32,000 bases of DNA from Candidatus Saccharimonadota bacterium (GTDB lineage: Bacteria; Patescibacteriota; Gracilibacteria; BD1-5; UBA6164), in contig OY782392.1 in assembly GCA_963677765.1 (NCBI GenBank), forward strand, positions 120,001 to 152,000, in the 5' to 3' direction. The first letter of the stretch is position 1. Each line of letters opens with the position of its first letter. The notes beneath the pieces are model-generated. The model was given only the letters and a program-made list of their open reading frames with translations. It was not told where the DNA came from and did no database searches. This document shows positions 5,471 through 31,165 of this stretch, piece after piece. The position numbers and the translations under genes were made by a program.

Positions 5471-6784
5471 ATGAAAAATAAACTAATAACATTTTTTGTA
5501 ATATTTATTAGCATAAGTTTAAATACAACTTATGCTAATAATGGTGCTTGTAAAATAAAAGATTCTACTAATCAAAATATTATTGACTATATAGATAATA
5601 ATAGAAAAATAATAAAACTTATAACAGATGAAATAATATCAGGTTCATCAAATAAAGAAGAAAGATCTATAAAAAATAATTTAAAGAAAAATTACGAACA
5701 AATAAGAGGTCCTATATTAAGAATATACAATGAATCCTTTGATTTTTCTTGATATTATTCATATTTTAGGTACTATGCTGTTTACCCTATCTCAAATGAA
5801 GTACCATATGAAGTAAAAAGAGACTATAATATACTTGAAAAAGAATCTGAAGGTATAAAAATGATTATAGAAAAAGTAGCCGAGAGATGATTATCTAATA
5901 CAACTATTGCAGATGCATGTAAAAATATATGAGATGATTTTGTATGTAATATAGAAAATAATATAAATGTAGAAAAATTATTATCTATATTATTAAAAAA
6001 TAATACTAGAATTTTAGACTTATATAGAAATGTTGTTATCTGAGAATGAGCAAAAGATTATAATGATTTGATTTTAGTATCAAAAGATTTTGTAAAAATT
6101 ATAGAAACAAATTATAATCCAATTTCAAATGCAGAATGTAGTAAAGAATGATGATTTTTTGAAAGAATATCTAAAGCAATTCAAAATATATGAACACTTA
6201 ATAAAGAATGAAGAGACTGAGTTCAAAAATGGAAGGATGCTGTAGATTTATTATTACAAAAAGATATGAGTGATGAAGAATATCAAAAAATAGAAAAAGA
6301 ATTGTTAAGAAAAGAATTATCTAGACAATGAATTTCTTGAGATAGTCAACAAAATATGCTTGATGCTCTTGATAAATTCAATAAAAATAACTGAATGTCT
6401 TTGGATAATAATTTTTTGTATAATACTTTTAATAATACTTGGCAAAAATTAGAAAAAGAATTTAAACAATTTAATAAAGAAATTATTTGAGATTTCTTTG
6501 ATAAAAAAGATACTCCTGAAATTAGTATTTGAAATACAAATCTTGCAAAAAAGAATAGCCAAATAACAGCAGATGTAGAATACAGAATAAAAGAATTAAA
6601 TGAACAATTAAAAAACTTCGAATCTATTTCAGAATTTGATACTAATAATGTTGTATCAAAAATTATAGATATTCATATAGAGATAGCGAACTCCACAGAA
6701 GTATTACAAGATAGTTGTAAAGTAGCGGTACAAGTATGTGAAAAACAAGACGCTTCAAGATGAAACTGTTGAAAATGTAATTAA
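5471..6784 (+). CDS. secreted, mostly helical Cys-containing hypothetical protein (437 aa)
   Basis: ATG 5471 lies 2 nt after the previous stop, and TAA is at 6782-6784. The frame was checked line by line under code 25. It has a signal peptide MKNKLITFFVIFISISLNTTYA and a C-terminal Cys cluster CKVAVQVCEKQDASRGNCGKCN. Confidence 0.8.
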
Positions 6785-6810
6785 AATTAAATAATAACCT
6801 AAAAAAATTA

Positions 6811-7554
6811 ATGTTATCGAAAAGAGAAATTGAAATAATGAGACAAAATGCTAAAATACACAAAAAAGTTTTTGATGAAATAAGAAAAACTATAAAAGAA
6901 TGAGTAAGTGCTGTTGAAATAGATCAATTATGTTGAGATATAGCAAGAAAACATAATGTATTATGTGGTTTTAGATGAGTATATGGTTTTCCAAACAATA
7001 TATGTATAAGTGTAAATGACGAAGTTGTTCATTGAACTGCTAGAGAATGATTAATATTTAAAGATTGAGATTTAGTTACATTTGATTTTTGAATAAAAGA
7101 TAAACAAGTATGAATAAATACAGATGCTGCAATATCATTGATAGTATGATGAGATGATAAAAATCCAAAATGAGCTAGACTTATAGAAGCTAACAAAAAA
7201 GCATTATATGCTGGTATTGCAAAAGCTAAAGTATGAAATACAACATGAGATATATGACATGCTATAGAAACTGAGATAAAAAAATATGGATATAAAGTTA
7301 TAAAAGACCTAACATGACATGCTATTTGAAAAAAACTTCATGAAAAACCTTATATATATAATTTTTGAACTCCTGGAACTTGAACAAAATTAAAAGCATG
7401 AATGACTTTAGCAATAGAACCTATACTATGAGAAACTAGTTGAGAAATTGTTGATGAATGAGGATGGGAAATTTATACAAAAGACTGATGATTAGGTAGT
7501 CAATATGAACATACAATATTAATAACTGATTGAGAACCAGAAATAATAATATAA
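6811..7554 (+). CDS. map: type I methionine aminopeptidase (247 aa)
   Basis: The translation contains GFPNNICISVNDEVVHG, DLVTFDFG, TGHAIG, LAIEP and YEHTILIT. This is the MetAP-I metal-ligand pattern. Several conserved Gly are encoded by TGA. Confidence 0.9.
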
Positions 7555-9645: not shown

Positions 9646-10170
9646 ATGAAATTGATAGTATGATTAGGTAATCCTTGAGACAAATACAAGCAAACAAGAC
9701 ATAATATATGATTTATGTTTTTAGATTATTTAAAACAAAAAGAAAAATTTAATGAATTTAATTTTGAATCAAAGTTTAAATGAGAAATAAGCTCTTGAAT
9801 TTTAAATTGAGAAAAAACTATATTATTAAAACCTCAAACATTTATGAATCTTAGTTGAGAATCAATAAAAAAAGTATTTGATTTTTATAAATTAAGTATA
9901 GATGATTTAATAATTATATATGATGATATGAGTATGGATTTTTGAAAACTTAGATATAGAGAAAACTGAAGTGCCTGATGACATAACTGAATAAAAGATA
10001 TAATAAGATTATTTTGACAAGATTTTAAAAGAATAAAAATATGAATTTGATATGATCAAAAATATGAAGTTAGTGATTGGGTTTTATCAAAATTTATTGA
10101 AGAAGAATTAATAGATTTGGAAAACGAAATATTTAAAAAAACAAAAATTTTACTTGATGAAAAAAATTAA
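9646..10170 (+). CDS. pth: peptidyl-tRNA hydrolase (174 aa)
   Basis: The translation [23 protein letters not shown]...GSAGGHNGIKDI is the canonical Pth signature. Its Gly residues are encoded by TGA. Confidence 0.92.
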
Positions 10171-10171
10171 A

Positions 10172-11500
10172 ATGAAAAAAATATATATAATAGGAATATG
10201 ATGAATTTGAATATCGGCAATTGCTAGATATTATAATCAAAACTGATATGAAGTTTATTGAAGTGACTCTTATGATTCAGAACTTATTCAAAATTTAAAA
10301 AATGAATGAATAGATATAATAATATGAAATATACCAGAAAGGATAGATAATAATTTTGAAAAAGTTATTTATACTGAAGCAATAAGAGAGGATAACAAAG
10401 AATTAGTCAAAGCAAAAAATTTATGAATAAAAACAATTAGTTATCCTGAATCAGTTGCAGAAATTGCAAATCAAAAAAAACTAGTAGCAATATGTTGAAC
10501 ACATGGAAAATCAACAACAACATCAATGGCATCAATCTTATTAAAAAATTCAGATGAAAATTTTACTTCAATAGTTTGAACTATATTAAAAGAATTTGAT
10601 AGTAAAAATTTTTATCATAGAAATAAAATAAAAAATAATGATGAATATTTTTTATTAGAAGCTTGTGAATATAAAAGAAGTTTTTTAAAATATGAACCAA
10701 GTGTTGTTATAATAACAAATATAGAAATAGATCATTTAGATTATTATAAAAATCTTGAAGACTATATAAATGCATATAGACAATTAATAGACAATATGAA
10801 ATCATGATGATTTGTTATATTAAATTGACAAGAAAATAATTCTAGACAATTAATATGATACAGAAATGATGTCAACTATATAATAGTAGACAATGATAAA
10901 TATACTTATAATTGACAAGAATTCATAATACCAGAATTAGACATAAAAATACCTGGTAGACATATATATTATGATGCTAGTCTAGTTTATATACTAGGGG
11001 AAATGTTATGAATAAAAAAATCTAATATATTAAAATCATTGTCTATGTACAATTGAGTATGGAGAAGAATGGAAGAAGTTTGACAAACTAAAAACGGCAA
11101 TATAATACTTAGTGATTACTGACATCATCCTACTGAAATAATTCTTACACTAGAATCTATAAAAGAAAAATATAAAGACAAAAAAATAGTAACTGTCTAT
11201 CAACCTCATCAATATAATAGAACTATAGAATTATTAGATTGATTTAAAAATGTATTTAAAAAAAGTGATATCTTAATTGTTCCAAATATTTATGAATCTA
11301 GAGATAGTGAAGATGATAAAAAAAATATGAACACAGAAATATTTTTAGAAAACATAAATCATACAAATAAAATAAACTGAAATTGATTAGATAATACATT
11401 TAAAATAATTGAAAAATTTGATAATGAAAATAAAAATTTATTAATTGTTTTAATGTGAGCATGAGATGTTGATAATTTGAGATATAAATTAAAAGTATAA
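10172..11500 (+). CDS. murC: UDP-N-acetylmuramate--L-alanine ligase (442 aa)
   Basis: It starts 1 nt after the pth stop. It has IGIGGIGISAIA (Rossmann fold), the [12 protein letters not shown]-loop (TGA at 10496-10498 is the first Gly), [10 protein letters not shown] and DYGHHPTE. Confidence 0.9.
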
Positions 11501-11522
11501 AAATAATATTAAATTTAAAAAA

Positions 11523-12500
11523 ATGGATTTTATAAAAAAAATAAAAGATATATTAAAAAATAATATTCAAGTTAGCCAAACAATTGTACTAATTATGTTA
11601 TTAGTAATAGGTATAGAATTTTATTGATTAAATATAAATTATTTAAAAATTTCTGTTATATTTTTAACAGTTATGATATTTGATGCTATATTTATAAAAA
11701 TGAAATCATGAAAATGGAGTTTTCCTTATTCATGAATTAATGCATGATTTTGAATAAGTTTTTTCTTGAGAAGTGATGAATTAATAATATATTTTGTTGC
11801 TTGATTATTAGCTATAGCATGAAAAAATCTTATAAGAATTAATTGAAGACATTTTTTTAACCCATCAAATATGTGAGTACTATTAGTTTTAATATTATTT
11901 CCTCACTATACTTGGATTAATACTTTACAATGGTGAAATTATACTTGAGTTATTAATATGAAATACATATTAATAATAATTACTATATTAATATTTTGAG
12001 CATTTATTACTTATAGAGTTTATAAATTTTTTAAATATAAATATTTTATTGATTATTTATTACCATTTTTTATTTTACATATAATTTTATTTTTTACGAT
12101 TCCATATTATGAAAGCATAAATTCTGCATTATTATTTTTTAGTGTGTCATTTTTTATATTTATGTTTCATATGATAAGTGATCCAAAAACAGTACCAGAA
12201 AAATCTATATCTAGATTTATATATTCTATAAATATAGTTTTATCATTTTATGTATTACAATTTTTTATAAATGAAGCATATGCTCTAATAGCATCTTTAT
12301 TTGTAAATACAATTCAGTTACCAATAATATGGTATTACGAAAAAAATAACAAAAAAGTCAAGTGAAAATACCCATTTTATTTGGTATATCTTTTGTTAGT
12401 GAGCTTATTTATGATATTATTAATATCGTATCTAATAAATATTTTTTGAAGACCAGACCTTGTTTTTGACAATGTTTGTAATCAATTAATATGTAAGTAA
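11523..12500 (+). CDS. polytopic membrane protein, RnfD/NqrB-superfamily-like, orphan (325 aa)
   Basis: The frame was checked line by line under code 25, and multiple hydrophobic helices are present. RHFFNPSNMGVLLVLILFP resembles the RnfD motif FNPAMIGYVVLLISFP. FMFHMISDPKT resembles RnfD FFILTDPVT. The central flavinylated loop of RnfD is not evident. Confidence 0.45.
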
Positions 12501-12537
12501 GATATTATATTTATATTATATTTGTAATTTATTCTTT

Positions 12538-12852
12538 ATGAAAAAATTAAATATCTCCCCTAAAGTTTTTACTCTAGTTTGAGTATTGTTAATTTATATT
12601 TCAGCACTTGTGTTAATTGAAAACACTTCTGAAAATACTTCTTATAAAAATAAAAATGCTATACATGATGTATCTGCAGAATTAAATTTTTATCAAAGTA
12701 CAAATAATAATCCATATGAACAAGAATTATGGTCTTCTGAAAAAGCTCCATTAGAAACAGTTTATGAAAAAGTAAAAGTAACATTAACAGGTGAACCAGA
12801 ACCTGCTGATACTGGAATAACTACTGTAAATGTAACTAGACATAGTCACTAA
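12538..12852 (+). CDS. small signal-anchored or secreted hypothetical protein (104 aa)
   Basis: ATG 12538 is in frame with the ORF-track fragment 12586-12852 across one TGA. The N-terminal hydrophobic segment is VFTLVGVLLIYISALVLI. Confidence 0.65.
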
Positions 12853-12885: not shown

Positions 12886-14745
12886 ATGAATAAAAAAATA
12901 ATCTTAACATTATTTATTACTTTTTTTTGATTACTTAATACAAATATAGCTAGTGCAGCTGTAACAGAAATAATAGAAGATGTAACAGAGTCTGTAACTC
13001 CAATGACAGAAGAAGAATCTTGTTTTGCTTTGTTAAATGAAAAAGTATGAACAGATGCAAGATTTCAAAATATAACTGAGGTTATGCCAAATTGAGATTT
13101 AACAGAAGTTTTATTTAACGAATCTGCTTGATCAAGTCTTGATTTATCAACATATGAAACATTTCAAGATTATGTTGTAAAAAATCCTGCACATAAATGA
13201 AGTTCTAAAAAATGGCGTGAAGATAATGGTCTTACTGAATATGATTTTTTTTCTAGAAGAACAAATATTGCAACTGTTATAGCAAAAGATAGATTTGTTG
13301 TATCTCAAGTAGTATGATTTTGAAGAAACTCTAATTTTGACTTCCCTGTTACTGCTGAATTTAAATCATATGGAGATAAATATAAATTAGAATGAGATAA
13401 TTTCAAAGAATTTGTATTGTATACTCATCATAGTATAACTTGAGACTTTTTAAGTTGTGGATTATTTAGATTAATACCTTTAGAAGAAAGAACATATTGA
13501 GATGTTCCTGAAGAAGCATATTTTACAAATACACTTCAAGGTAATAACAATCAAGCTAAATTATCAAATAATAAATGTAGTTCAGGTTTTGAATGAGAAT
13601 TTTTATCAAAATGATCTAAAGATTATTATGCTATGAAAACTAATGTTTGTGCATTAGACTATGGACAAAATGATTTTGTTAAACAAGAAATATTAGCAAT
13701 AGCATATGATAATGGTTCTAATTACTTCAATGAATATGATGTTTTTCAACAACAAGTAACAGCTATGAAAGACACTGATACGACTTCAAATGGTCTAGCA
13801 GAAGTAAGAGCTAAGTTTTTACAATATTTAAAAAACAATACTAGTTTAAGTTTAATAAATGGTAACTTAGATGATGATGAAATGTCTTTTAATACTACTA
13901 AAAATTTATTATCATATATTGTAAATAAATTAATTCCTAGTGCAAATGCTGCAAGAGAATTCAATTTTGACCAAGAATATATTGACTCTACAAAATGAAT
14001 GGTAATGTTTGAAGCTTTACCTTATGAACTATATGAAAAACTAGAAAAAATTCCTAGTAAAACTTTCGTAGAGTATATAAAATTATCATTAACTCCAAAC
14101 TTTGAAGATTATATAAAATATAGAAAAGATAATAATATAGTTTTAAGTAGTTATGAAAGAGTTTTTGCAAGTTGTGGTTTGACTTATGAAGAAAGAAATA
14201 ATGTAGTTGTTGATTTATTAGAATGAATTGAGGATCCTGAAAATTTTGATCCTTCAAATGTAAAATATTCAAATAAAAAATTCGGTGATTGTATTATTCC
14301 ATATCCAGATAGTGAAAATAGAAAAACAGTTATAGAAGATTCTTTTGAATCTAATAAGTTATTAGCTCAAAAACTAAATGGTAGCTATGAAGCACCTGAA
14401 GTTGAAGTAGAAATAACAAAAATGATAGAAGAAGAAAATTCTAAAAAATTAGAATATCAACAAAATATTGATAAACTTACTAACAACTATAATGAAGGTT
14501 TGATTAACTGAGAAGAACTAGAACAAAAAGTAAATGAAGAAAAACAAAAATTAGAAGACTCACTAAAACAAATAGAAGATAAATACTCTAAAATATTCAT
14601 GGAAACATCTCCATCAGATGAATATGAAATGATAAAAAATCAAGATAAAAAAACTAATCCTTTAGTATATGTAGTAGTAGCTGTGTTATTATTACTATGA
14701 GTAGCCTTATTATTTATGGCATTTAACAAAAACAAAAACAAATAA
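12886..14745 (+). CDS. surface protein with signal peptide, C-terminal coiled coil and C-terminal membrane anchor (619 aa)
   Basis: The frame was checked line by line. The signal peptide is MNKKIILTLFITFFGLLNTNIASA. A heptad-like region (KLEYQQNIDKLTNNYNEGLINGEELEQKVNEEKQKLEDSLKQIEDK) is followed by LVYVVVAVLLLLGVALLFMAF and a basic tail NKNKNK. Confidence 0.8.
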
Positions 14746-14764: not shown

Positions 14765-17587
14765 ATGAAAATAATAAAAATAATTACTTTAACTATAGCT
14801 TTATTATTATCAAATAATTATGTTTTTTCTGACTTTACAACTACTTCTACAATTGTAGATTGAGAAAAAACTTTTGATAAAATACATTGAGAAAATAGAG
14901 TTTTATATGTTCATGAAGATTATGTAGTAAACCCTTTTTCATGATCTAATATAGTTAGAAACCAAACAAATGGTGCAACTACTTCTTATACTGTTGATGG
15001 TAGAGTATTTAATTCTAGTCATCCAAAATATGCAAATAACTGAGCAACTATGCAATCATGGACTAATCATTGAGATGGTACTCAAACTATGATTCAATAT
15101 TTAGAAAATACTCATACAAAAGATGCTTCTAATATAGTAATGCCAAATCAATCAGTAACTGTAAGAAAATACTATAAAGTTGATTTTAACTATGATACTA
15201 GTTGACCAACTGGTTGAGATTTAAAACTATATAATGATGAAAATGCAACTCAAGCATTTACATATACAGCTTGAACATGGTTAAATGAACCTAAGTATTA
15301 TACGATGACATGTAATGATCCTGAAACATGATGTAAATGTGATTTTAATCTAGATAAAACATCTGAAAATTGATGGACTGATGATAATAATCATGCATGT
15401 ACTAACAGTACTGAAATAGTAAAAGTTAATGGAGTTGTAAGAACTGTTCCAAGTATTATATGACATATGACATCTCCTAAAGTTTCATTTGAAAACAATG
15501 TTAACCTTAGAACAGATGATATTACTTGAACTATGCCAGGATGAAATAAAGTTATGTATGACCAATCAAATCCTCGTGTATGATTAGGTGTAACTCAATT
15601 AGTTGATTGAGAAAATAAAACTGTTATAGATTTTAACTTATGAAATGAAGATAACAGAGATTATAGAATTAATCCAGCTACTGGAAAACAATATGACTGA
15701 GAACAAATACCTTGAAAAGTATATTTTGATTCTAAAAAAATAGTTGATATAAAAGCTAATGATGAATTAAAATTATGAGTTGTATTTACTGATCAATATA
15801 TTACTGATTCTGCAAATGGTGTTTCTTGAATTAAAAACTATAATATAAAAATTTATAAAAAAGATAATTCTTGAAACTTCCCTACTACTGCAATATATAA
15901 TTTTTCAAAAAGTTATAGTGAATATAATACAGATGGTACAATACAAGAAAGTGATGATAAATGAAAATTATTAAGTGATTTTTGAGTTTTAAAAAACTCA
16001 TGAGAATATAAAATAATATTGGAAGCTTATGATTGGGCAAATAATCATACTCAATCTACTTCTTATTTAAATATATATCCAGAATGAGTTTCAGAATCTA
16101 ATATAAGTCTAGAATATAATTCTGATTCATGAGATAAATTTGCAAATAATAATGATTATTACCAATATATATTTACTATAAGAGATAAATATAATAATCC
16201 TGTACATGATAAAAAACTAGATATAATTTGACAAGATTGTTGAGATTTAACTTCTTGATGTTTAGAACTAAAAGAAAATACAGTTGATTGATCATGAGAA
16301 TCTGCATTAATAATTTATGATATAAGTAATGATGGTATTACTGATACAAACTGACAAGTAAGATTAAAAATAAAATCTGTATCACCAGGTACTTATACAA
16401 ATAGCTTTTTAGTACAAATTAGATCTTGGAACTACAAGTATATTGATACAAGCACTATAATAGATTTTTATGTTTTCAAAGCAGAAGATACTAATTTTAT
16501 TCCACCTTTTGAAATGTCAGAAATATTAGTAAGTGATGACTGAATTAATTGGGATTCAAAACCTGAAATTTGAAAAGAACAAAAATATAAAATTGTTGTT
16601 AATAATACAGGTTCATTATCATGATATACTAATTGAGTATTAAGACTTAATCAAGAAAGTATAAAAAGTAAAGTTGATTGACATTTTTGGATAAACTTCG
16701 AATGAGTTGAAAGAAATTTCTGAAATAATATTAATAGCTTTTTAGGTTTCTCATGAACAATAGATGGTAGTGCTAATCTATTAAAATGACCAGAAGTTGA
16801 AAATGATGAATTAGAAATTACTTATGATATACCTTCTGTTGATAGAAAAGTTGTTTATAGATTAGAGTCTGTTTCTATAAAAGGTTGTGATAGAGAAACT
16901 TTATGATTAAAAGTTGAATGAAATATCCAATGAGATGGTAAATCAGATATAACATGACAAGAAGAAAATTTTTCTGACTTATCATTATCAGAAACTAGAT
17001 CTATAATAAGACAAAATGCATATCAATTAATTAGAAATATGTCTAATGGACAAGTATTAAACTGAGTTAAATATATTGAAAATCAAGATTATGTTTTAGA
17101 AGAAAATCCTAGTTTTGAAACTCTAATTGTTAGAGAATGAAATGTAATTATTAACAAAGATATAAATACTTGAAATAACAAACTATGAATAATAGTATTA
17201 AAAGATAAATATGATGTTGCAAGTGATTATAATAATGCATGAAACATATATATAGCAAACAATGTTAATAATATATCTGCTGCATTATATTCAGATGGTA
17301 CTATGAGAAGTGCTAAATCAAATTGAACTAATTATAATGATTCTGAATTATTAAATGATTTAGAAATATTCTGAACAGTATTTACAAGAAATACTATTGG
17401 TTGAGCTGTTAATTGAGGTACAAGTTATACTTTACCTGGATGACAAGAAACTACAGATTATGAATTAGCTTCATCTTATGATTTAAACTATTTAAGAAAA
17501 TCAATGAGTTGTTGAGATGATTATGCATTATTAATAAAATATAATTCTGCATTACAAGTAAATCCTCCTAAAGGTTTTTCTAAATAA
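14765..17587 (+). CDS. giant secreted or surface protein, paralogue A (940 aa), Ig-like-repeat adhesin-like with a shared C-terminal module
   Basis: The entire ORF was read codon by codon under code 25 (ATG 14765 to TAA 17585-17587). The signal peptide is MKIIKIITLTIALLLSNNYVFS. Beta-rich segments such as YQYIFTIRDKYNNPVHDKKLDII recall bacterial Ig-like (Big) domains. The C-terminal ~230 aa are homologous to the 17675-21730 product. Confidence 0.85.
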
Positions 17588-17590
17588 TAA

Positions 17591-17624
17591 AAAAGATAGA
17601 ACAAAAATGTTCTATCTTTTTTTT
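17591..17624. terminator. rho-independent terminator (first of two between the convergent giant genes)
   Basis: A 12-bp perfect stem aaaagatagaac/gttctatctttt with loop aaaaat, then a T-run to 17624. Confidence 0.8.
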
Positions 17625-17640
17625 GAAAGTTAATAAATAA

Positions 17641-17673
17641 AAAAGAAAATACTTTTAAAGTATTTTCTTTTTT
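17641..17673. terminator. rho-independent terminator (second of two, abutting the stop of the minus-strand giant gene)
   Basis: A 12-bp perfect stem aaaagaaaatac/gtattttctttt with loop ttttaaa. A/T runs lie on both sides. Confidence 0.75.
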
Positions 17674-17674
17674 G

Positions 17675-20600
17675 TTATTTAGCAAAAACCTTAGGAGGAT
17701 TTACTTGAACATTTGGGTTGTATTCAATTACAAAAGCTCAATCTCTATATTTACAAACTCAAGATCAATTAACTATACAGTTTTTAATTCATCTTCTTGT
17801 ATAGTTTAAATCATAAACCATAGCTTTGTTAAAATTAGAAGTGTTATCAGAAAGAGATGATCATCATGGTAATTTATAATCTCCTCAAACTAAGAAAGCA
17901 CCTCAAATAGTATTTCTTGTAAATAATGTTCACTTCAATAATAATTGATTACTTAATTCAGAACTTCTTTGAGTATTATCAATAACATAAGGAATTCAAG
18001 AATTATTAACACTAATAAATCAACCATCTGCATATATAACAGCATTAATTTCAGAAACATCAGGACTGACATAAACATTTCATCAGTTTCATGATAAATA
18101 GTCAGTATTTACATCATAATTATCTTTTAATACTATTATTCAAAGTTTATTTCATGAAGTATTTATATTATTATTTATCAATAAATCTCAATCCTTTAAT
18201 ATAATAGTTTCATAAGTAGGATTAGTATCCATTACATAAACTCAATTTGCAATTTGATTTCAATCAACATATTTAACTCATCAAACTATAGAGTTATGTC
18301 TCATTTTCGAAATTTGATTATAAGCATTTTTTCTAATATCTGATCTAATATCAACCATAGATATATCAGAAAAATTATCTTCTTGTAATCATGCAAAATT
18401 TGATTTACCATCTCATTGTAATAATCAAACTACTTTAGCTCAAATAAATACATCATCGCTAGAATTAATTATAGATAATGCTTCAAATGAATTATAACTT
18501 TCATTTGGAGAAATAGGAGCTATAACTCATTGTGCTCATATATAATATCAAATAAATAGAGCTGTTTGTCATCAATTTTCTATCTGAATACCTGGTGTAC
18601 CAAAATCAGTTGCATCGTCTGATGTATTAATAGTAGCATCAAAAATTGCTTCTTTAGTTGATAATCAAGATATAGTATCAGATAAACTTTGTAAAGAAGT
18701 ATTATCATAATCAACTACATCAATATAATTTCTAAAATTAATCAAATTAGTAGAAGGATTATATCAAGTTGTAGATATTATTGAAACTTTATACTTCATA
18801 TTTGTACCAAACTCTGGTAAAGCTATCCATGTTGCTCCGTCATCATCAGAAGCTGTAATATCTCAAATAAATAGTTTTTTAAAACCATTTGTTTCATATC
18901 ATGCTCTTGCTAATATAGTATAAGTATTAAGAGTAGAATTTGGAGAATAATCATCATTCCATCAATTCATTTCTAACTTAAATCTATTTGAAAATTCTCA
19001 AGGAGCAGTTGAAGAAATTTTGAAAGGTATTTCTCAATTTGTATTAGATGAGACTCAAGAATATCAAGTTTCTATTAAAGAATCAACTCATGCATCAATA
19101 TTTCAATTAATCAAATAATCATACATATTTGATCTAATAGTAGAACATCAAGAAGTTACTCATTCACAAGTTTGATTAATAGAAGTTATAGTTTTTCAAT
19201 TAATACTATTTCAATATTGATCGTTTAAAACTAATTTATAATCATAAGCTTGTGTTCAATCAGGATATTTATCTCAAGTAGTCAACGGACTTACATAACT
19301 TTGTAAAACATCTACATCTGATGGATGAACAGTTATTTGTATATCTTTTACTCTAGAGTTACCATATTCATCTGTAGCAGTAACTTTTATATTTTTAACT
19401 CATTTAGTTTCAAATATTCAAGCTAATTCAATTGTATCATTTAAATAAGAATTATTAGTTCATCATAGAGTTCCTGATCTATAAGGAGCTCAGTTTAATA
19501 ATATTTGATAATTAATTTTTGAAACACAACTACTTCATCATGCAGTAGATTCATCCATATCTATAAATAATGAGTCACTATTTGCCTTATATGAATACGA
19601 TGTATTTCATAATGCTGCAGCTCATTTTCTAAAAGATATATTTGGTGCTGATTCATCTATATGATTCATACCATAGTTATATCAAATAGTATTATATGCT
19701 CTATCTGTAGTAACAAGAGTTCATTGTGCACCATTTTGAGACTGACTAGTAAATGTTATAGTTCTTCTTATAGTAGATCATCAAACAGTCATAGTTGGTC
19801 ACCGAGTAGTCCAACATCAACTACCTCATCTATCAAAATTACAAGCAGCTGTAAAAGTAATACTTCAACTTGTACATCTAGGAACAGCAAAATCTACATT
19901 ACTTTGTTCTTTTATATAGATTTTTACAGGTCTACCATTTGAATCTAGAAGTTGTCTAGGTATTACATCTTTTAAAGTAGATCTAATTATAGGATCAGCA
20001 TAAGATGAATCATCTTGCTTATGTTTTGCTGTAATATCAAATCATGTAAAATTATATGTATTACCAGGTTCTGGTATTTTTATTTTTAGATTAATTAAAT
20101 ATGGATCTACAGGATCAGATCTAACTCAATTAAGCTGTCTATAATAATATTGACTAGAAGAGGTAGCCATAACAACTTCAGGATCAGTTCAATCTGCAAA
20201 AGTTATATCATAACCATCAATAGTGTCATAATGAGGATTACCATATGGGTCTTCTATTCTTATACTTATAGCAAAACTTGTTTCATGATTATATCAATCA
20301 GTGTTATTAACTGGTATAGAAAATGTAGGCATTTCAGCATATCATCTTCATCATTGAATATTATCATTTGGTAATACTTTTATAGGAACACTATTTACTT
20401 TTGTTAAGTCCATAACTTCCTGAGTATTGATATTTTTTGCATACAAGTATAAAGATATATCTCATATTTTTGTAGGAGTAAATCATTCATTTACAGATAT
20501 ACGAAATTGTTTTAACCTCCAACTAAGAACATCTATATCAAAGATTTGATCTATAACTTCTGGTGTTAATGTATCAGATCTAATATTAAAATCAGTATCT

Positions 20601-21730
20601 ATATATATAGTTTCTTCTGAAACATTTGCTGCTTCAGTATTAATATCTGGTATATTTTCTCAAGAGTATCTATAATAGATTTTATATTGATAAGCTGTTT
20701 CTTCTCATGAAGTATCTAAATAATCTTGAAATCAAAAATCTTCTAGATAAACAGATTCATTAGCTTTTACAGAATAACTACTAACTCTAAATCAATCATA
20801 AACCTTAAAATTTTCAGCCCTAAACTCACTACTTGGCTTTATATCTCAAGTAATAAATCTCAAAGGAAAATTAGAATCAATATAACGACCTCATGTTCTA
20901 GTTTCATCACAATATTCAACTCAATCTATAGTACCATCAGCAGTACATATATTTTTCATACTATAATAAAATCTTTCATTATTAGTATCAATCTTTAAAG
21001 TATCATCATATATAGCTGGTATATAATCACTAATTCTATTTTTCTTTTCTCACCATGGTAAACCAGAGTGCAAATCATTTATCACATCTCTAAAGTTTAA
21101 CATAAGATATTCAAATCCATTGTCATAAATATCAGAGCTTCTATATGTTTTTGGATAATAACAATAATAATCACCAGTAGTCCAATAGTCAGGAGAATAT
21201 ACACATTCTTGAGACCAAGAATCCCTTACTCTATCAACTATAATTATTTCTGTATCATAATTAAATATTTCATCTATAGTAAATTCTCTATTTTCAACAA
21301 AAAATGATTCATTTTCTTCTACTAAAACATATTCAGTATCAGTAACTGTTATAGTTCAAGATCAACTAGGATGAGGTTCTTCTCTAGTAACTTCTACTTC
21401 TTCATAATATGGTTCATGAAAATCAGGATTTTCTCTATAAACATCTTCTATAGTAAAAGTTTTATTTCCATAATAATCAGATATTTCTCATAAGATTATA
21501 TTTTGCAATAAAGTAAACATTCAAGTTTCAGAATAAGTTTCTTCAACATTTGCCATAAAATAATCATCTCTATTAACTCTCAAAGTATCATAATCTGTTT
21601 CGTAACAGTCTTGATCATTACAAACATATGGGTAAAGATATCATGATCTATCACTAGCAGAATGAGATGTTCAAAATAAAGCAAAAAATGATATAATTAT
21701 TGATAATAAAACAAATAATTTATTTCTCAT
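17675..21730 (-). CDS. giant secreted or surface protein, paralogue B (1351 aa), Cys-rich N-terminal region, Ig-like repeats and shared C-terminal module
   Basis: All 1352 codons were checked and there is no TAA or TAG in frame (ATG at 21730, TAA at 17677-17675). The signal peptide is MRNKLFVLLSIIISFFALFGTSHS. Segments such as YDYKLVLNDQYGNSINGKTI and ATDEYGNSRVKDIQITVHPS are Ig/cadherin-like. The protein ends in NPNVQVNPPKVFAK. Confidence 0.85.
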
Positions 21731-21756
21731 AATTTGTATTTTAAAATAATATAAAA

Positions 21757-21789
21757 ATATCAAAAACAGAAAAAAACTGTTTTTGATAT
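21757..21789 (-). terminator. rho-independent terminator after the small Cys-rich gene, upstream of giant paralogue B
   Basis: A 13-bp perfect stem atatcaaaaacag/ctgtttttgatat with loop aaaaaaa. A T-run follows on the minus strand. Confidence 0.75.
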
Positions 21790-21795
21790 TGTTTA

Positions 21796-22215
21796 CTAGT
21801 TAACACTTACATCAATACCACCAGTTGGATCGATTCTGTCAGTTTCAATTATTGAACATGTTGTAGTTTCATATGGATAGTCAGCAGTATGTCTTCAACT
21901 CGCTCAACCTGTATTAGCAAAAGCTCACATATTAGTATAACCAGCTTCACAAGAAGTTCTTCTATGATGGTAAGCTACTTTTGTAGTTTTTGTACCATAA
22001 CAAGTTCTAGTACCACTTTGAGTCCAAGAATCACATCTATTAATTTGACATGGTTCATTTGTAACTGATTTTACACAAATATAATCAGGATTAGCAGCTA
22101 CTTTTTCAGTACCAGCCATAAAACCAAAGTAAGATGCACCAGATATAGCTAAAACAGCAACAACTGCCATAGCAGATTTAACAGCTACATTATTGTTAGT
22201 ATTTTTTTTAGTCAT
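21796..22215 (-). CDS. small Cys-rich membrane-anchored or secreted protein (139 aa)
   Basis: The ORF-track fragment 21925-22215 continues through three TGA codons to TAG at 21798-21796. The N-terminal helix is AMAVVAVLAISGASYFGFMAG and the ectodomain has six Cys. The gene is locally GC-richer than its neighbours by eye. Confidence 0.75.
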
Positions 22216-22283: not shown

Positions 22284-23846
22284 TTATCTTATATGAAAAA
22301 AAGGTAATTCAACAGTTCATTCAGTATCAATAACTCTATGTCAGACATTTTCCCAAGCTCATTTTTCTCTATTTAGAGTCCACCGAGCTGGCCATCTAAG
22401 GAATTGATTTCAAACTAAGAAATCAAAATCTATTGGATATCATCATTGTTCTTCTGAATAATCAACAAGAAATTGCATATCCTCATCTGTTATAGCACCA
22501 TATAGATTATCAGCATTTGAATATAATTCTTCCATATGATAAACCTTGTTTTGAAGTATAACAGGATTATCTGATTTAGTATATAACTCTTTTCATGTAA
22601 TATTATCAATTATTTGAATATATGGCATTCAAAAAGTTTTCATTGTATTACCTAAATAACCATAAACAGGTCAGAAAGTATCAGAATTAAGTAGATTTGT
22701 AGTATTAGTATCTCTGTTGAATTGATATAAATAAACAGTTATATCTTTATTCTCATATTTTTCTAAAGTATCACTATAATATAATGAATCATAAGGTATA
22801 AAATATGAAGAACCATCCATTTCTAATACATAATATCTAGCATTAGTATAATCATCACTATTTTCAGAGTTAACTTTTATAATCTTATCTGCTTTATTTA
22901 ATGTAAAACTAACAGTCATATTTTTAAAGTCAACTGGTGATCAATATTGATTTAATCATATAGTTACATATCAATCAGAATATCATTCATATTTTGCTTT
23001 TAATCTAATATGAGTAAAAGGATCAAAACTTCATGAGTATTCAAATTTTCAATCTTTTGTTGTAGCTATATCTTGTCAAAAATTAAGTATTTCTATTATA
23101 GCTCAATCTATAGGAGCTCAAGATTGATCAATAACTACTCAATCTAAATTAAGTGTTATTTTTTCTATATCATCTTCTCTTAATTTATTAGCTTCATCAT
23201 AATCTCATCTTAGATCATATAAATAAGCTAATAACTCTTCTTGATTTTTTGATAAATTTGATTGATTTAAATCATCAATTACATTATTTATATTATTGTC
23301 TTGACTAAAAACATTTACAGCTAATACATCATTCAAAACTGAAGTAAGTGGATGTTGCAAATCTCTTTCAAAAGTTATTTTATGACTAGATGAAGAGTTA
23401 TATCATCAATATATTAAATTTTCTTTATAAGAAGAATATATATCTAAAATAGCTAAGTTTTTATATCATTCTTCATCAAAAATATATCATTCTGTTTTAA
23501 ATCTATAAGGTATATATGTTATATTTCAGTTAGAATCTTTTTTTCAAATGGCAAAATTTTCTTCTAATGGATCAAAATCTATACCTTCATAATCTTTTAG
23601 TTCCTCTAAGAAATCTCAAAATTTTTCATATTTTTCAGGATTAATCCCAATTTTATCATAATTTTCTTGTGATAAAGTATCTGTTATCAAAGAATCCATA
23701 TGATATTGTCATTCATATTGTTCCAAATAATCTGGCTGACTACTAAATTTTTGTTTAATATCAGATCAATTAATAGAAATAAGAAAAAATAACAAAACAG
23801 AAACTATGATAAGCGGTATTATGTAGAAAATATTATTGTTTACCAT
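22284..23846 (-). CDS. N-terminally membrane-anchored protein with a carboxypeptidase-regulatory-like beta-sandwich domain (520 aa)
   Basis: The frame was checked line by line (ATG at 23846, TAA at 22286-22284). The transmembrane segment is IFYIIPLIIVSVLLFFLISI. The segment LDGVVIDQSGAPIDGAIIEILNFGQDIATTKDGKFEYSGSF...LKAKYEGYSDGYVTI fits the CarboxypepD_reg pattern. Confidence 0.75.
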
Positions 23847-23903
23847 ATTTAAAAATTATGATTTTAAAATCTAATTATTATTATAAATAAATTTATAATA
23901 AAA

Positions 23904-23940
23904 CAAACAAAAGAGCTTTACAAGAAAGCTCTTTTGTTTG
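23904..23940 (-). terminator. rho-independent terminator of secD
   Basis: A 16-bp perfect stem caaacaaaagagcttt/aaagctcttttgtttg with loop acaag, 10 nt downstream of the secD stop. Confidence 0.8.
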
Positions 23941-23950
23941 TAAATAATTT

Positions 23951-26805: not shown

Positions 26806-27453
26806 ATGAAAAAATCAAAAGTAGCAACATCTATAGCTGAAGCCATGGTAGTTTTGACTATAATAGTATTATGATTAACATGAATCTATAATATATATAA
26901 CAAATCAATGGATTTAACTATAGCAGTTGAAAATAAGATTCAAGCAATTCAAATAGCTAGAGAATGAATAGAAGCTGTAACAAATATAAGAGATACAAAT
27001 TGGCTAGTTTTTACATCTGACCCAAATAATTGTTGGAAAACCTTAAACTATGATGATAGTTGTGTTTGAGAAAGCGATCCTTTATCAAGAATAGATATAA
27101 ATGATGGTAGTTATAGAGTATATAGAAATACAGATAATAGATGGGAACTAGATTGATGATGAGCTATATCATGAGATTATAGCAATACTCCATATAGAGA
27201 GTTTTATAAAATAAGACTAGATAGTAATTGATTATATACTCAAGATTGAACATGAACAGATTTTAATCCAGTTTATACAAGAGAAATACAAGTAACAACT
27301 ATTGATGAAACATCGATAGATCCAAATACATGAAATCCTTACTATACACAAGCATTTGAATGACTTATGATTAAAAGTATAGTTTATTGGTCCGAAGAAT
27401 GAAGAATAAGAAATGTTAGCATAGAAACAATAATAACAAATTACAAAAAATAG
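26806..27453 (+). CDS. prepilin-type N-terminal domain protein (type IV minor pilin or pseudopilin-like, 215 aa)
   Basis: The frame was checked line by line (ATG 26806 to TAG 27451-27453). The N-terminus MKKSKVA-TSIAEAMVVLTIIVLGL has the charged leader, Glu at +5 and hydrophobic helix of class III signal peptides. It is followed by a PilV/GspI-like helix, AVENKIQAIQIAREGIEAV. Confidence 0.5.
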
Positions 27454-27485
27454 AAGCCTAAGAGATAGACTTCTATTTTTATTTT
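27447..27485. terminator. hairpin terminator shared by the convergent pilin-like gene and the 1228-aa gene
   Basis: A 10-bp stem aaaatagaag/cttctatttt with a 13-nt loop, then tttttatttt. It overlaps the stop of the minus-strand gene. Confidence 0.55.
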
Positions 27486-30400
27486 ATAAGATCATTTATT
27501 TTAATTTTTACTTCCTCTTCTGTTTGTCAAGGAATATCTTTTCATTTATTCATAAATGCCTTGTAGGCTTTTTCTAAATAATCTTCTTTTGAAGCGAATT
27601 TATCTTTATCATATAAACCAAATCATACTTCTTCTATCATAACATCAATAATAGGATTTCAAGCTCATTCTGATTTACTAAATCTTCATGATACTTCTTT
27701 TATATAATCAGAGAAAAATTCAAATTGTTCTTTGAAAAGCTCTTTTCTTTGTTCTTCTGTAACTCAAGTTTCATCTCAAACTTTATAGTTTCTAATAGTT
27801 TCAAAAGAATTTATGTACATGTTATACATATCTTTACTTGTAGGTCTTCATAAACCTCATGTTGGGTCAGAAGATATTTTTGAAATTCATCATTTTGTAA
27901 AAGCAATAGGATTTTTCTTATAAACTCAATAAGTTATATCATCATCTTTTACATTGAATTCTCAATCACTATGAACTCAGTTTAACATCTCATAATATTG
28001 TTTATAAACAGGTTCTTCATTTCTTCTCATTATAGTATATGGGTCTGATAAGTTTATATGGTTTATAAGTTGTTTTCAATAAGTAGTCCAGAATTTGTAT
28101 ATAGCTTTTACTTTTTTTTCAGAATCACTTTCTTGTTTTGCAGCTCTAAATTTTTTCATTGCTTCAGATTCAGCTCCTCATAATTTATCAACTATTACTT
28201 GTTCTATAAAATTGTTATACAAATTTATTCAATCACTATCTTTATTAAAAATAAGAGTAGTAAAAGGAGTTGAAAAACCTAAACCTATAAGTTTATTCAA
28301 TAAAACTTGATCCATATTTTTTGCAAAACCAGAAATAGTCAAAACAAAAGGAACTGCATTCATTTCAAAAGAACTACCATTTTTTCAAAAAATATTTTCC
28401 AAAGAACCAATAGCATTTGCATATCAAAGTTTTTCTAATTCTCATAAAAAATAACTAATTCTTCATTCCGTTGTTATTTTATTACCAGATTTCATAGCTC
28501 AATCTTCCATTTCATCTCTCATACCTCAAGCTAAAGCTCATCAAAAATCTTTATCTAATCTAGATCTAATAGTTCATCCTTTAGCTCTATCTCATAACCA
28601 AGATTCAACTAATCTTTCTTCTGTAAAAAAGATTGGTTGAGGTTTTCATTCTGGAGATTTAGCACTTGCAATTCATTCTTTGAATTTAGCTAATTTCGAT
28701 TGAGTTCATCATAATCTTTTATACCATAAAAGACTTCAAGAATATTTTCTTAATTCTTTTGGATATAAACTACCATATTTTCAAACTACTGTCATCATTG
28801 CAGCTATAACTTCGTATTCTTCTGAATTTTTATTCAAAAGAATTTTCTCTACTTGTTTTATCATATCTTTTGATCAAAGAGATTTCAAATTAGCCGATAT
28901 TTCTTCAGTAAGAGATTTTTCTTCTTGCTCAGCAGCTGATTTCATATTTAGATAAAATGTATCTGGTCATAGTTTTGCCATTTTTTGTGCAAACTTCAAA
29001 GATTTTAATTTACTTCATCTTTCTAAAGTTTTCTTTATATTCTCAGGAAAAAACTTAATTGCTCACATCAAATCAGCAAAACTCATTCTTGACATATATT
29101 TACTAAGACCTGATCATTTTAAACTTTTTTCTCAAAAAATTTCTTCTGGAGACTTTTCTTCTTCCTTTATTCCTTTTAAATAAGGAGATAATTTATATTT
29201 TTCTATATCATATAAAAATTGTGAAAAATTCTTAGCATTATATGAATTTTCTCAAGACTCAAATTTAAATCAGTCTTTTGATTCTTTAAAACTTCATTTT
29301 GTATATTCTATTTTATCTTTTCATATTTTTCTTATATATATAGCATCTCAATTTTCTCAAACAAAATATTTTACTCATGTATAAGTTTCACTTTGTGAAA
29401 GTTTTTCATCTGATTTTAGGCATATCTTGTCAGAGTTTTTTCATCATATATCAAGTGAATTAAATCAACTTAATCATAATTCTCAAGCAGTCGAAACAAA
29501 ACTATCAAAATTATTAATTTTTTTTCTTCTTTTGAATTTTGATTCTTTAAATACTTCAAAAAACTTATTAAAATCTACATTTATACTTCATCATGCTCAT
29601 TGATTTATAGTTATAGTTTTACTACTTTCATCTATAGAATCAACCAAAAAGATAAAATTTTCATCATCATTACTAGATATAACCATTTCATCAGATTTCA
29701 TTTTTATAGATTTTCATTCTGGATCAATTGCATCTATTTTATTTTTTAATTGATCTATAGTATTTATATTGTTATCTTCTACCATTTCTTTTTCTCCTAT
29801 ATCTTTTTTTTCATAAAAATTAATAGATATGTCTTTGTTATCTGGCTTAGATATATTTTTTAATAAACTATAAAAATCATCGTATAAATAATTTTCTTCT
29901 GCTCAACTAAGATCCTTTTTAAATCAATTGGGAGTAGTAACATCTTTTAGCTTTAAAACCTTTGACTCAGCTACTGATCAGTGATCAACTTTTGATATAT
30001 AATAATAAGTAAAATGAGGATTTCATTTTTTATCAAAATATTGTAGTTCTATAAAATTTTTCTCTATTAATTTATTTATAGACTCCCTAATATAAGGTGA
30101 AATACTTTTATCTTTTGAAATTTTTTCTATAAAAGATTTATGAATATTTTGTTCTTCTCATTCTATATCTAATTCTCATAAAATAGATTCTTGCATAGAA
30201 TTATTTTGTTCTATTTCACTATTATATATATCAATCAATCTAGATTTTATTTTTTCATCATTAAATAAATCTTCTATATTATTAGAGTTTTCTAAATCTT
30301 CTAAGTCTATAAAATAACTTTTTTTATCAAGTGAATCAAATATTTCTTTTATTTTTTCATCTTCTAATCATTCTATAAGATTTTTAGAGTCAGATTTAAA

Positions 30401-31165
30401 TTTTTCAAATATTTTTTCTTTTAAACTATCTGATAAAATATTATTTTTTTTCAAATCATAATAAGATATAGTTTCCAAAAAATATTTAATCAAAGCTTTT
30501 TTTGATCAATTATTTAAAGATTGAAGCAATATATCCAATCATTGTAAATCTATTTTTGAATTACTATTAAATATACTAAATAAATAAGTTATTTCTTCTT
30601 GATTTAAAGTAGATAAATTTATATTTATTTCTCTTTCAAGCATAGTTTTTATTTCTTTTTTTGCAGAAAGAGCAGTGTTTTTATCTGAAAAGATATCATT
30701 TTTAATCAAAAAATCTAATCTTTTATTTGGGTATTTCAATAAAGATATCAAAGTATTATTATCTAGTTTTGATAATGATGTATTTAAAATATTTTTTGAA
30801 TTATCATCAAGAGTATATTCAAAATTATATTTTTCATTTAATTTTTTAAAGTTTGATTTTCTAGGTAGAGTTAGTTTTAATACCTCTGATTTTAATTGTG
30901 AAGTTATAGTTTCAATTTTTGATTTTTTTAATCCACTCAGATTTAAAGATAAGTCTTTATACTCATCTCTAATGCTAACAAAAGAAAAATAATCAGTGTA
31001 AATTTTTGATATATCATATTCAGAAGAATCAAAAAAATCCATATTATCTTGAAGTTTTGATAATATAAAATCATTTTGAGATTTTGATAACAATGATGTA
31101 TCAATTGTTTTTTCTTTTTGAGAATTTTCTATAGAATTAGAACTATTTTTTCAAGAAAGAGACAT
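27479..31165 (-). CDS. large orphan hypothetical protein, apparently cytoplasmic (1228 aa)
   Basis: All lines were checked and there is no TAA or TAG in frame (ATG at 31165, TAA at 27481-27479), with an in-frame TAA four codons upstream of the ATG. It has no signal peptide, no transmembrane segment, and no P-loop or HExxH. It is rich in K, E, S and N. Confidence 0.8.

Follow-up and report, generated by a model that had tools for sequence, protein, structure and literature searches.

What does a conserved C-terminus do on two giant surface proteins whose N-terminal parts differ? The question is raised by a 32,000-nucleotide stretch of DNA from the Gracilibacteria (positions 120,001 to 152,000 of contig OY782392.1, assembly GCA_963677765.1; hereafter the window), which contains two convergent genes, A and B, for secreted surface proteins of 940 and 1351 amino acids (aa). 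A previous inspection of the letters alone (the sequence-only reading) had proposed that both end in the same module of ~230 aa, perhaps a lineage-specific surface-display or export tag. Gracilibacteria and Absconditabacteria are recoded and mostly uncultivated epibionts or predators. Their attachment to hosts is ascribed to pili and “giant surface proteins” (PMC8080830, PMC6851277), and almost none of these proteins is annotated. A and B are best explained as members of a large superfamily of fibre-like adhesin proteins that is specific to this lineage and exported by Sec. With a probability of roughly 0.45, its end domain tethers the fibre non-covalently to the envelope of the producer, so that the stalk presents a variable head.

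Genetic code and homology of the two proteins

The window has a G+C content of ~24%. Under translation table 11 no long open reading frames (ORFs) extend across the region of A and B, and ORFs of 100 aa or more, which add up to 7 kb in this reading, total 41 kb once TGA is taken as a sense codon. The meaning of the codon is documented by four standard-code homologues from Peregrinibacteria-type loci that are free of in-frame TGA. In the TGA columns of A and B they exhibit Gly in 64 of 127 non-gap cells and Trp in none, and TGA in the window therefore stands for Gly (code 25) and not for Trp. It accounts for 56 of the 79 Gly codons of A and for 87 of the 111 Gly codons of B.

Under code 25, gene A (14765..17587, plus strand) and gene B (17675..21730, minus strand; both including the stop codon) have exactly the positions, strands and lengths given in the sequence-only reading. 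The two proteins are paralogues: BLASTP aligns A407-940 with B771-1351 (E=2e-75, 34% identity, 594 columns), and the identity over the last ~230 aa amounts to about 50%. All shared motifs that had been listed (QGDGKS..NFSD, R.NAY, GVKY, NKLGIIVLKD.YDV..DY, FTRNTIGGA, LPGG and YDLNY.R) are found in the alignment, together with the endings QVNPPKGFSK in A and QVNPPKVFAK in B. The colinear C-terminal homology was thus correctly recognised, but not its extent, because the shared stretch comprises ~530 aa and includes an immunoglobulin (Ig)-like stalk. The N-termini of both proteins resemble signal peptides by inspection of the translation (MKIIKIITLTIALLLSNNYVFS in A, aa 1-22; MRNKLFVLLSIIISFFALFGTSHSA in B), as had been claimed. 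The translations of A and B contain no transmembrane (TM) segment, lipobox or hydrophobic tail. The convergent pair is retained in L004, a related metagenome-assembled genome (MAG; JASMTS010000006.1), with 73% identity for the orthologue of A and 56% for that of B. Gene B is moreover near-identical to the cluster P0120/P0166, of which P0166 is located on a contig of 1.05 Mb.

In-frame TGA is also present in module genes of relatives with 57-59% G+C, namely six times in L008 (8303-10753) and three times in L025 (8405-10876). Four of the L008 sites are located in the aligned C-terminal region, and two of them match Gly in three to four of the four standard-code homologues. Judged from these alignments, the TGA=Gly recoding seems to persist in GC-rich members of the family, where TGA would be a rare Gly codon.

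Domain architecture and structural model

The architecture of the proteins was deduced from an AlphaFold2 model of the correctly translated homologue P0123 (562 aa), which was calculated from a 97-sequence alignment and has a mean predicted local distance difference test score (pLDDT) of 91.6 and a predicted template modelling score of 0.84. Residues ~18-320 are all-beta and form about three sandwich domains. They are followed by a 15-residue helix (343-357), by short strands arranged as ~four rungs with small helices (370-480), and by a final strand-helix-coil tail. The tail has a pLDDT of ~80-89, and the terminal ...PPKGF is consequently modelled as part of the fold and not as a floppy tag.

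The part boundaries of A and B were mapped from this model. The signal peptide of A (aa 1-22, 14765..14830, plus strand) was assigned by inspection. It precedes a subfamily-specific head (aa 23-406, 14831..15982), which lacks homology to B and is homologous only to heads linked to the partner gene f619 described below. The Ig-like stalk (aa 407-723, 15983..16933) consists of ~three beta-sandwich domains with a Big_1-like second one and is aligned to B771-1106. The terminal module (aa 724-940, 16934..17584), delimited by profile matches and the mapped model, comprises a helix (741-755), strand rungs (768-873) and a cap with the QVNPPKGFSK end. The order is the same in B on the minus strand, with a signal peptide assigned by inspection (aa 1-25, 21656..21730), a Cys-containing head that is homologous only to f520/f139-linked heads (aa 26-770, 19421..21655), the stalk mapped from the model and aligned to A407-723 (aa 771-1106, 18413..19420), and a terminal module with a two-Cys loop (aa 1107-1351, 17678..18412).

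All significant Foldseek matches of the P0123 model in the PDB are Ig-like proteins, and they are led by rod adhesins: FdeC (4e9l, E=1e-7), InvE (5n40, 2e-7), intimin (1f00, 7e-6) and invasin (1cwv, 2e-5), all with a probability of 1.0. The surface (S)-layer protein SbsC is also among them. The match was placed on the stalk because ~260-295 columns are aligned and the first ~320 residues of the P0123 model are all-beta, and the stalk is structurally similar to the rods of invasin, intimin and FdeC. The Pfam matches are weaker. Big_1 (PF02369) matches A454-545 with E=2.4e-4 and 21.6 bits, below the gathering cut-off of 34.9, and the best Big_1 score among family members, 27.8 bits, is also under this cut-off; weak Invasin_D3 matches below threshold agree with the Foldseek result. 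The significant structural and weak sequence matches jointly suggest that the shared stalk consists of about three invasin/intimin (Big_1)-type Ig-like domains.

Distribution and C-terminal placement of the module

An exhaustive search with the module profile, counted as representatives of 50%-identity clusters, retrieved 1,402 clusters with a threshold of E<=1e-3, of which 953 also reach E<=1e-10 and 259 even E<=1e-30. Confinement to A and B, the outcome that the sequence-only reading had named as contradicting it, is hence not what was found. Placement was evaluated in 160 sequences, i.e., the 18 matches of the first search plus the top 150 profile matches. Between the end of the module envelope and the C-terminus there are 0-6 residues in all 160 sequences and none in 117, as anticipated by the sequence-only reading. 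The proteins range from 145 to 2,789 aa, and the short ones are N-terminally truncated fragments. In 138 of the 160 sequences Trp exceeds 4%, which is the footprint of a code-4 translation of TGA=Gly genomes. This mistranslation has helped to hide the family, and all its named members are annotated as “hypothetical protein”.

The genome matches are annotated as Gracilibacteria, Peribacteria, Peregrinibacteria and “Patescibacteria group”, and one protein as Absconditabacteria, which substantiates the presumed lineage specificity. Gracilibacteria (now Candidatus Altimarinota) and Peregrinibacteria represent separate candidate phyla in the NCBI taxonomy. Five distant loci (L015-L020) also end in the module, and four of them are confirmed to use the standard code. 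The module is complete in these four homologues, its internal loop is longer, and the proteins terminate in ...DPP..LPGF plus 9-12 residues. The fifth (L015), whose code is not settled, ends in ...PPPGF plus 9 residues. Several copies per genome were seen in four cases, with at least two copies in the window, in L004, in L021 and in the PHN31 MAG, where they reside on different contigs.

The conservation of the tail was quantified in the 97-sequence alignment (P0123 numbering). Phe561 is present in all 97 sequences (100%) and Pro558 in 96 (99%), followed by Tyr549 (95%), Ile547 (92%), Pro557 (91%), Lys559 (86%) and Gln554 (81%), and position 560 is either Gly (64%, including mistranslated Trp) or Leu (33%). 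The resulting consensus is I-x-Y-[ND]-x-x-[IV]-Q-x-[ND]-P-P-K-[GL]-F plus 0-5 residues. The number of residues behind the conserved Phe in the recoded lineages has a mode of 2 and ranges from 0 to 5 in nearly all sequences, with one case of 7. Within the module, Ser, Asn-Thr, Asp and Arg residues are invariant among 97-140 sequences and also kept in the standard-code homologues, and Tyr residues are conserved.

Two loci deserve separate mention. L021 (GCA_010119095.1, SAAG01000031.1; 3963-12339) harbors a tandem duplication of a two-gene unit, with a TPR protein (~410 aa) and a module protein of 977 aa followed by a second TPR protein (410 aa) with a module protein of 940 aa that contains DUF4215 Cys-rich repeats. 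In L023 an ORF of 294 aa (9761-10642) encodes the module alone without head or stalk; it may represent a truncated gene or a stand-alone form.

Comparison of the module with domain databases

The sequence-only reading had not recognised the module as any described one, and the database searches agree with this assessment. Neither Pfam nor NCBIfam contains a model that matches the module, as judged from scans of A, B, five sequences of the module alone and 47 family members. The module profile has no match among the PDB sequences even at E<=10, and a module-centred model (P0005, 18-sequence alignment, pLDDT 70.6) has no PDB fold match in Foldseek (best E 3.6). None of the structural matches of the P0123 model could be assigned to the module either. 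Models for the C-terminal domain (CTD) of the type IX secretion system (T9SS; Por_Secre_tail / TIGR04183) do not match the module in Pfam or NCBIfam even at E<=10, and the hydropathy scan revealed in the module proteins checked no C-terminal hydrophobic helix typical of a sortase, exosortase or archaeosortase tail. The sections at hand of PMC8080830, PMC11452946 and PMC6851277 describe large surface proteins, pili and peptidoglycan, and the end domain is unmentioned in them.

The sole recurrent sub-threshold match is to MinC and its C-terminal domain, with E=0.012 in NCBIfam (two of five members) and E=1.2 in Pfam (PF03775). These values are far under the cut-offs, and the module is accordingly not assigned to this family. 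The C-terminal domain of MinC is a small, dimerising right-handed beta-helix, and the likeness is a hint that bears on the fold type of the module only. A rung-like pattern is discernible in the sequence (GNVII / LGIIVLKD / GNIYI / INAIIYADG / LFTRNTIGGA). Together with the secondary structure of the model and the MinC match it hints at beta-helix-like rungs.

An origin as a phage tail-fibre module was considered and rejected. The PHROGs database yielded nothing consistent, with one of five module sequences matching a baseplate PHROG at E=0.004, the BFVD structure search with the P0123 model retrieved Ig-like proteins only, and the neighbouring genes are housekeeping genes.

Evolutionary rates of heads, stalks and modules

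A comparison of the window with L004 shows that the parts of the fibre evolve at different rates. Housekeeping genes share 76-93% identity, and the module reaches 82% in A (global alignment; 76% in the tblastn match) and 73% in B. The head and stalk of A are 72% and 70% identical, those of B only 52% and 55%, with 36-45% over the first 300 aa of B. The constraint on the module thus nears that of core genes, whereas the remainder of the same polypeptide drifts. The partner genes described below have identities of 74% (f619), 74% (f520) and 60% (f139).

The heads are diverse also in composition. They contain Big_13, PKD, Big_1, Big_3_x, DUF11, DUF7617, DUF7507 or DUF4215 repeats or nothing recognisable, and no enzyme domain was detected in the 47 members scanned. 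The view that the module is carried by different cargo is therefore valid insofar as the heads vary, but the recognisable cargo consists of adhesin-type beta-sandwich repeats only. This composition is indicative of one adhesin superfamily with a common C-terminal stalk and module and not of a cargo-agnostic tag.

Partner genes upstream of the fibre genes

The neighborhood was surveyed by ORF clustering over the fetched loci, 18 at first and six added later. Membrane-anchored or TPR partner genes are located upstream in most loci examined. The A-type partner f619 (12886..14745, plus strand; 619 aa) ends 19 bp before A and encodes a signal peptide, a ~590-aa ectodomain with a coiled-coil-like stretch, and a C-terminal TM segment with a basic tail. 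Six loci contain homologues, which immediately precede the A-type gene in the window, L004, L005, L012 and L014 and lie ~6.5 kb upstream in L010. The B-type partner f520 (22284..23846, minus strand; 520 aa) is anchored by an N-terminal TM segment, has a conserved C-terminus (FLRWPARW...VELPF) and lies upstream of B-type genes in the window, L001, L004, L006, L007, L011 and L026. Its weak CarboxypepD_reg-like segment (Pfam E=5.7e-6) is below the cut-off. In all of these loci but L001, which has f520 only, the N-terminally anchored Cys-rich protein f139 (21796..22215, minus strand; 139 aa) is inserted between f520 and the B-type gene. None of the three families has an above-threshold Pfam assignment, and they are unrelated to each other (hhalign probability <6%). 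Other module genes are preceded by TPR proteins of ~410-460 aa, namely twice in L021 and once in L025, where the partner has an N-terminal TM helix, and L022 and L023 lack a co-directional partner.

The linkage of these units exceeds shared synteny, because those of L001 and L026 are located in unrelated chromosomal contexts. The partner family follows the homology of the head: A-type heads occur with f619 and B-type heads with f520 plus f139. The modules of L006, L007 and L026 are nevertheless closer to that of A despite their B-type heads and partners. Since the partner follows the head and the similarity of the module does not, the job of the module appears to be generic and the partners belong to the heads. 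The idea that the module docks on an operon-encoded partner is correspondingly weakened, with unrelated partner families whose type follows the head and not the module.

The sequence-only reading had recommended a search for a conserved membrane protein or protease as candidate sorting enzyme. No universal neighbour fit for this role was found in the fetched loci, and the upstream partners differ by subfamily. Three candidates were rejected in the course of the survey. An M50 peptidase is not a recurrent neighbour or sorting protease, as the RseP-like gene of the window is not homologous to the M50B peptidases of L001 and L023. The ~770-aa upstream “partner” in Peregrinibacteria proved to be the product of a housekeeping gene, DNA topoisomerase I, and the adjacency of SecDF, which L001 and L026 do not have, reflects shared synteny of close relatives.

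A putative envelope tether and its rivals

The proteins of the superfamily consist of four parts: a cleavable signal peptide, a fast-evolving head specific to the subfamily, an Ig-like stalk and a globular end domain of ~230 aa. The latter comprises one long helix, ~four short-strand rungs and a cap, and the final residues of the cap turn back to the domain. In the reading that we favour, the end domain has one generic job in every member, most likely the non-covalent attachment of the fibre to the envelope of its producer. It may bind peptidoglycan, some wall polymer or a surface component that does not vary, and the binding pocket would be formed by the invariant Ser, Asn-Thr, Asp and Arg residues together with the conserved Tyr residues, while the stalk would project the head outward towards prey or host. 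The partners f619 of A, f520 plus f139 of B and the TPR proteins of other loci would function together with their head type as subunits or assist in its assembly, and would not be receptors of the module. This tethering is favored because no other tether is visible, because the conserved part is C-terminal and generic, and because the head evolves fast. It is also in accordance with the reports (PMC8080830, PMC6851277) that the lineage makes peptidoglycan and has a fibrous surface rich in large proteins. A closed Gracilibacteria genome lacks the outer-membrane secretin PilQ according to PMC6851277, consistent with the absence of an outer membrane. Anchoring to the cell wall or surface, one of the options named in the sequence-only reading, stays the best, albeit unproven, explanation of what the module would do.

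Four points weigh against this tether. No Pfam match to SLH, CWB2, WxL, LysM, GW or SH3b was obtained for A, B, the five module sequences and the 47 members, and the model used for the module-only structure search was mediocre, with a pLDDT of 70.6. The membrane-anchored partners are linked to the head type, so that the head rather than the module could be on the membrane side, and the closest structural relatives of the stalk, invasin and intimin, have the opposite polarity. The C-terminal domain of inverse autotransporter adhesins is the adhesive tip, and exactly such proteins, FdeC, InvE, intimin and invasin, lead the stalk matches. The fibre might accordingly be held with its head at the producer membrane by f619 or f520 plus f139, which are all bitopic membrane proteins of head-specific families, and the conserved end domain would be a distal tip whose invariant polar and aromatic residues suggest a pocket for a ligand that many prey or hosts share, for example peptidoglycan or some other surface component present in all bacteria. 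A host-contacting tip is however expected to diversify, but the module is the slowest-evolving part (82%/73% versus 52-55% in head and stalk of B) and conserved across candidate phyla with presumably different hosts. The head of B (52%) furthermore diverges much faster than its supposed anchor f520 (74%), and L022 and L023 have no adjacent partner at all. We regard this inverted polarity as doubtful, but as the main rival of the tether.

The envelope tether also competes with readings in which the C-terminus is a signal. The module with its invariant ...PPK-G-F tail could serve as recognition domain in a hitherto undescribed surface-display pathway of the outer-membrane-less lineage of Gracilibacteria, Absconditabacteria and Peregrinibacteria. 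Such a dedicated route would accomplish anchoring or sorting independently of any relation to sortase, T9SS and exosortase, and would position the whole adhesin arsenal with which these episymbionts or predators seize their hosts. This proposal is unlikely. Its narrower form, a true sorting or export signal that an undiscovered sorting enzyme of this lineage would recognise at the PPK-G-F end and possibly cleave or attach covalently, is distinctly improbable, even if the strict C-terminal placement, the nearly fixed distance of the Phe from the end, the several paralogues per genome and a sortase reported for Gracilibacteria in PMC6851277 speak for it. The motif is not followed by a hydrophobic helix or a basic tail, and the tail is ordered in the AlphaFold2 model as part of a folded ~230-aa domain, which contradicts the comparison with T9SS-CTD, sortase or exosortase signals drawn in the sequence-only reading. 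The 9-12 residues behind LPGF and the 9 residues behind PPPGF in L015 show that the distance to the end is not fixed class-wide. The recognisable cargo is exclusively adhesin-like without a single enzyme, there is no universal protease or membrane neighbour, and M50 peptidases, which are encoded near three loci, show no homology to that of the window. An export tag is moreover unlikely, because a Sec signal peptide is enough for export from cells that reportedly have no outer membrane. We attach similarly little credence to an end domain that oligomerises or nucleates the folding of the fibre, like the fibritin foldon, the adenovirus knob or a tailspike, or that packs a surface layer. The strong constraint on the module, its rung-like strands with the weak hint (E 0.012-1.2) to the dimerising MinC beta-helix and the presence of SbsC among the structural matches to the stalk are compatible with it, but the monomer is modelled confidently without partners (pLDDT 91.6), tandem Ig rods are typically monomeric, and PHROGs and BFVD contain no match to phage fibre assembly domains. 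Least probable of all is an enzymatic effector, i.e., a small beta-helix-type hydrolase or lyase that is delivered by targeting heads and acts on envelope polymers of the prey or the producer. Polysaccharide lyases often have beta-helix folds, and the invariant Ser, Asn-Thr, Asp and Arg, retained in the standard-code homologues, might be catalytic in such a protein. The module, in contrast, matches no enzyme family in sequence or structure, ~four rungs are very small for such enzymes, and the layout of a variable N-terminus, a conserved C-terminus and an Ig stalk is typical of adhesins.

Other features of the window

The 87-bp gap that separates the stop codons of A and B contains two A/T-flanked hairpins. 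The one directly after the stop codon of A (17589..17622) was found by the terminator scan; it is perfect, with 15 pairs, terminator-like and could serve both directions. The second one, an AT-rich inverted repeat directly after the stop codon of B (17640..17672), was detected by eye and is also terminator-like, but fails the G+C criterion of the scan. A third hairpin with 14 pairs from the same scan (21756..21790, minus strand) is located between f139 and B and resembles a terminator or attenuator. The intergenic region of SecDF and f520 harbors a palindromic hairpin with a 17-bp stem (23903-23941), which is terminator-like on both strands and parts the f520-f139(-B) unit from SecDF.

The protein f139 (window 21796-22215, minus strand) exhibits the sequence ANPDYIC right after its membrane anchor, and mature B-type proteins begin with a similar Cys-rich [DN]Y[IV]C stretch (YPYVCNDQDC in B, N-terminal region about 21560-21655; ANPDYIC in P0060). 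As a family-wide feature this motif was rejected, since it occurs in only 6 of 125 sequences and in the B-type subfamily only, where it may be a common motif for disulfide bonding or assembly.

A 215-aa protein with a type IV pilin-like N-terminus (26806-27453, plus strand; KVA|TSIAEAMVVLTIIVLGL, Glu at +5) has no Pfam match, and its gene occupies the same syntenic place after RlmN in L004, L005 and L006. In L025, two genes with prepilin-type N-termini (6270-7241, GFTLAELIVV; 11168-12754, GFSLAELIVV) flank the TPR-module pair. Upstream of f619 and A the window encodes a polytopic membrane protein with a near-threshold match to NQR2/RnfD/RnfE (11523-12500, plus strand; E=1.4e-5), which is kept in L004, L005 and L014. 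Two adjacent secreted proteins (3855-5468 and 5471-6784, plus strand), the second of which is Cys-rich at its end and kept in L005, L006 and L013, have no meaningful Pfam match, and the same holds true for a 1228-aa protein without signal peptide (27479-31165, minus strand).

Significance and comparison with known systems

With the end-domain profile, at least 1,400 protein clusters can be recognised as a single adhesin superfamily. The profile sets the bounds of the variable head, the stalk and the conserved end and exposes head-specific partner operons (f619-A; f520-f139-B; TPR-module), thereby providing targets for studies of localisation, binding and host range in the few cultivated systems. 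The end domain would merit a new entry in Pfam/InterPro. If it were truly a new envelope-anchoring or sorting device, it would represent new cell-surface biology for the candidate phyla radiation.

The short Pro-(x)-Gly-Phe-type motif near the C-terminus (PPKGF / LPGF) is reminiscent of the signals of PGF-CTERM/archaeosortase, LPXTG/sortase and PEP-CTERM/exosortase. Those signals are tripartite and consist of a motif, a hydrophobic helix and a basic tail. The motif of the module, in contrast, lies inside a folded domain and is followed by 0-12 polar residues to the end, and a tail of this kind (TM plus basic) is present in the window on f619, but not on A or B. The T9SS CTD shares with the module its lineage-restricted occurrence at the extreme C-terminus of many Sec-signal proteins. 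It is a beta-sandwich of ~80-100 aa that is cleaved by PorU in diderm Bacteroidota and occurs on enzymes as well as adhesins. The module differs by its length of ~230 aa and by its secondary-structure pattern of one long helix plus strand rungs. T9SS CTD and SLH are cargo-agnostic tags, unlike the module with its adhesin-type repeats only, and the module lineage is reported (PMC6851277) to lack PilQ and the outer membrane.

PilY1/PilC resemble the module proteins in their signal peptide, variable N-terminal region and conserved C-terminal domain, and pilin-like genes are located near some loci (window 26806-27453; L025). They differ in that the module proteins have no match to the Pfam family Neisseria_PilC and no beta-propeller in the model, and that pilin genes are not consistently adjacent. 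A further similarity exists with the inverse autotransporters invasin, intimin, FdeC and InvE, in which a Big_1-type Ig rod is also followed by a distinct C-terminal globular domain. The module proteins, however, lack the N-terminal beta-barrel or LysM anchor, their host is reported to be without an outer membrane, their N-terminus is the variable part, and there is no C-type-lectin-like tip among the matches listed.

The logic of the system resembles that of the non-covalent wall anchors of monoderm bacteria, namely of CWB2 in the Cwp proteins of Clostridioides difficile, of SLH and of WxL in the Csc proteins of enterococci and lactobacilli, in which one module is present on many paralogues with different functional regions and several copies per genome, without a TM segment or a covalent-sorting signal. 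The genes of WxL/Csc clusters adjoin membrane-anchored partners, and CscA has a C-terminal TM anchor, as does f619 here. The differences are the lack of sequence similarity, the fold of the module with a helix plus strand rungs, its combination with an Ig stalk and the limitation of the cargo to adhesin-like repeats; wall binding of the module is putative. The end domain is a new domain family that implements a known logic.

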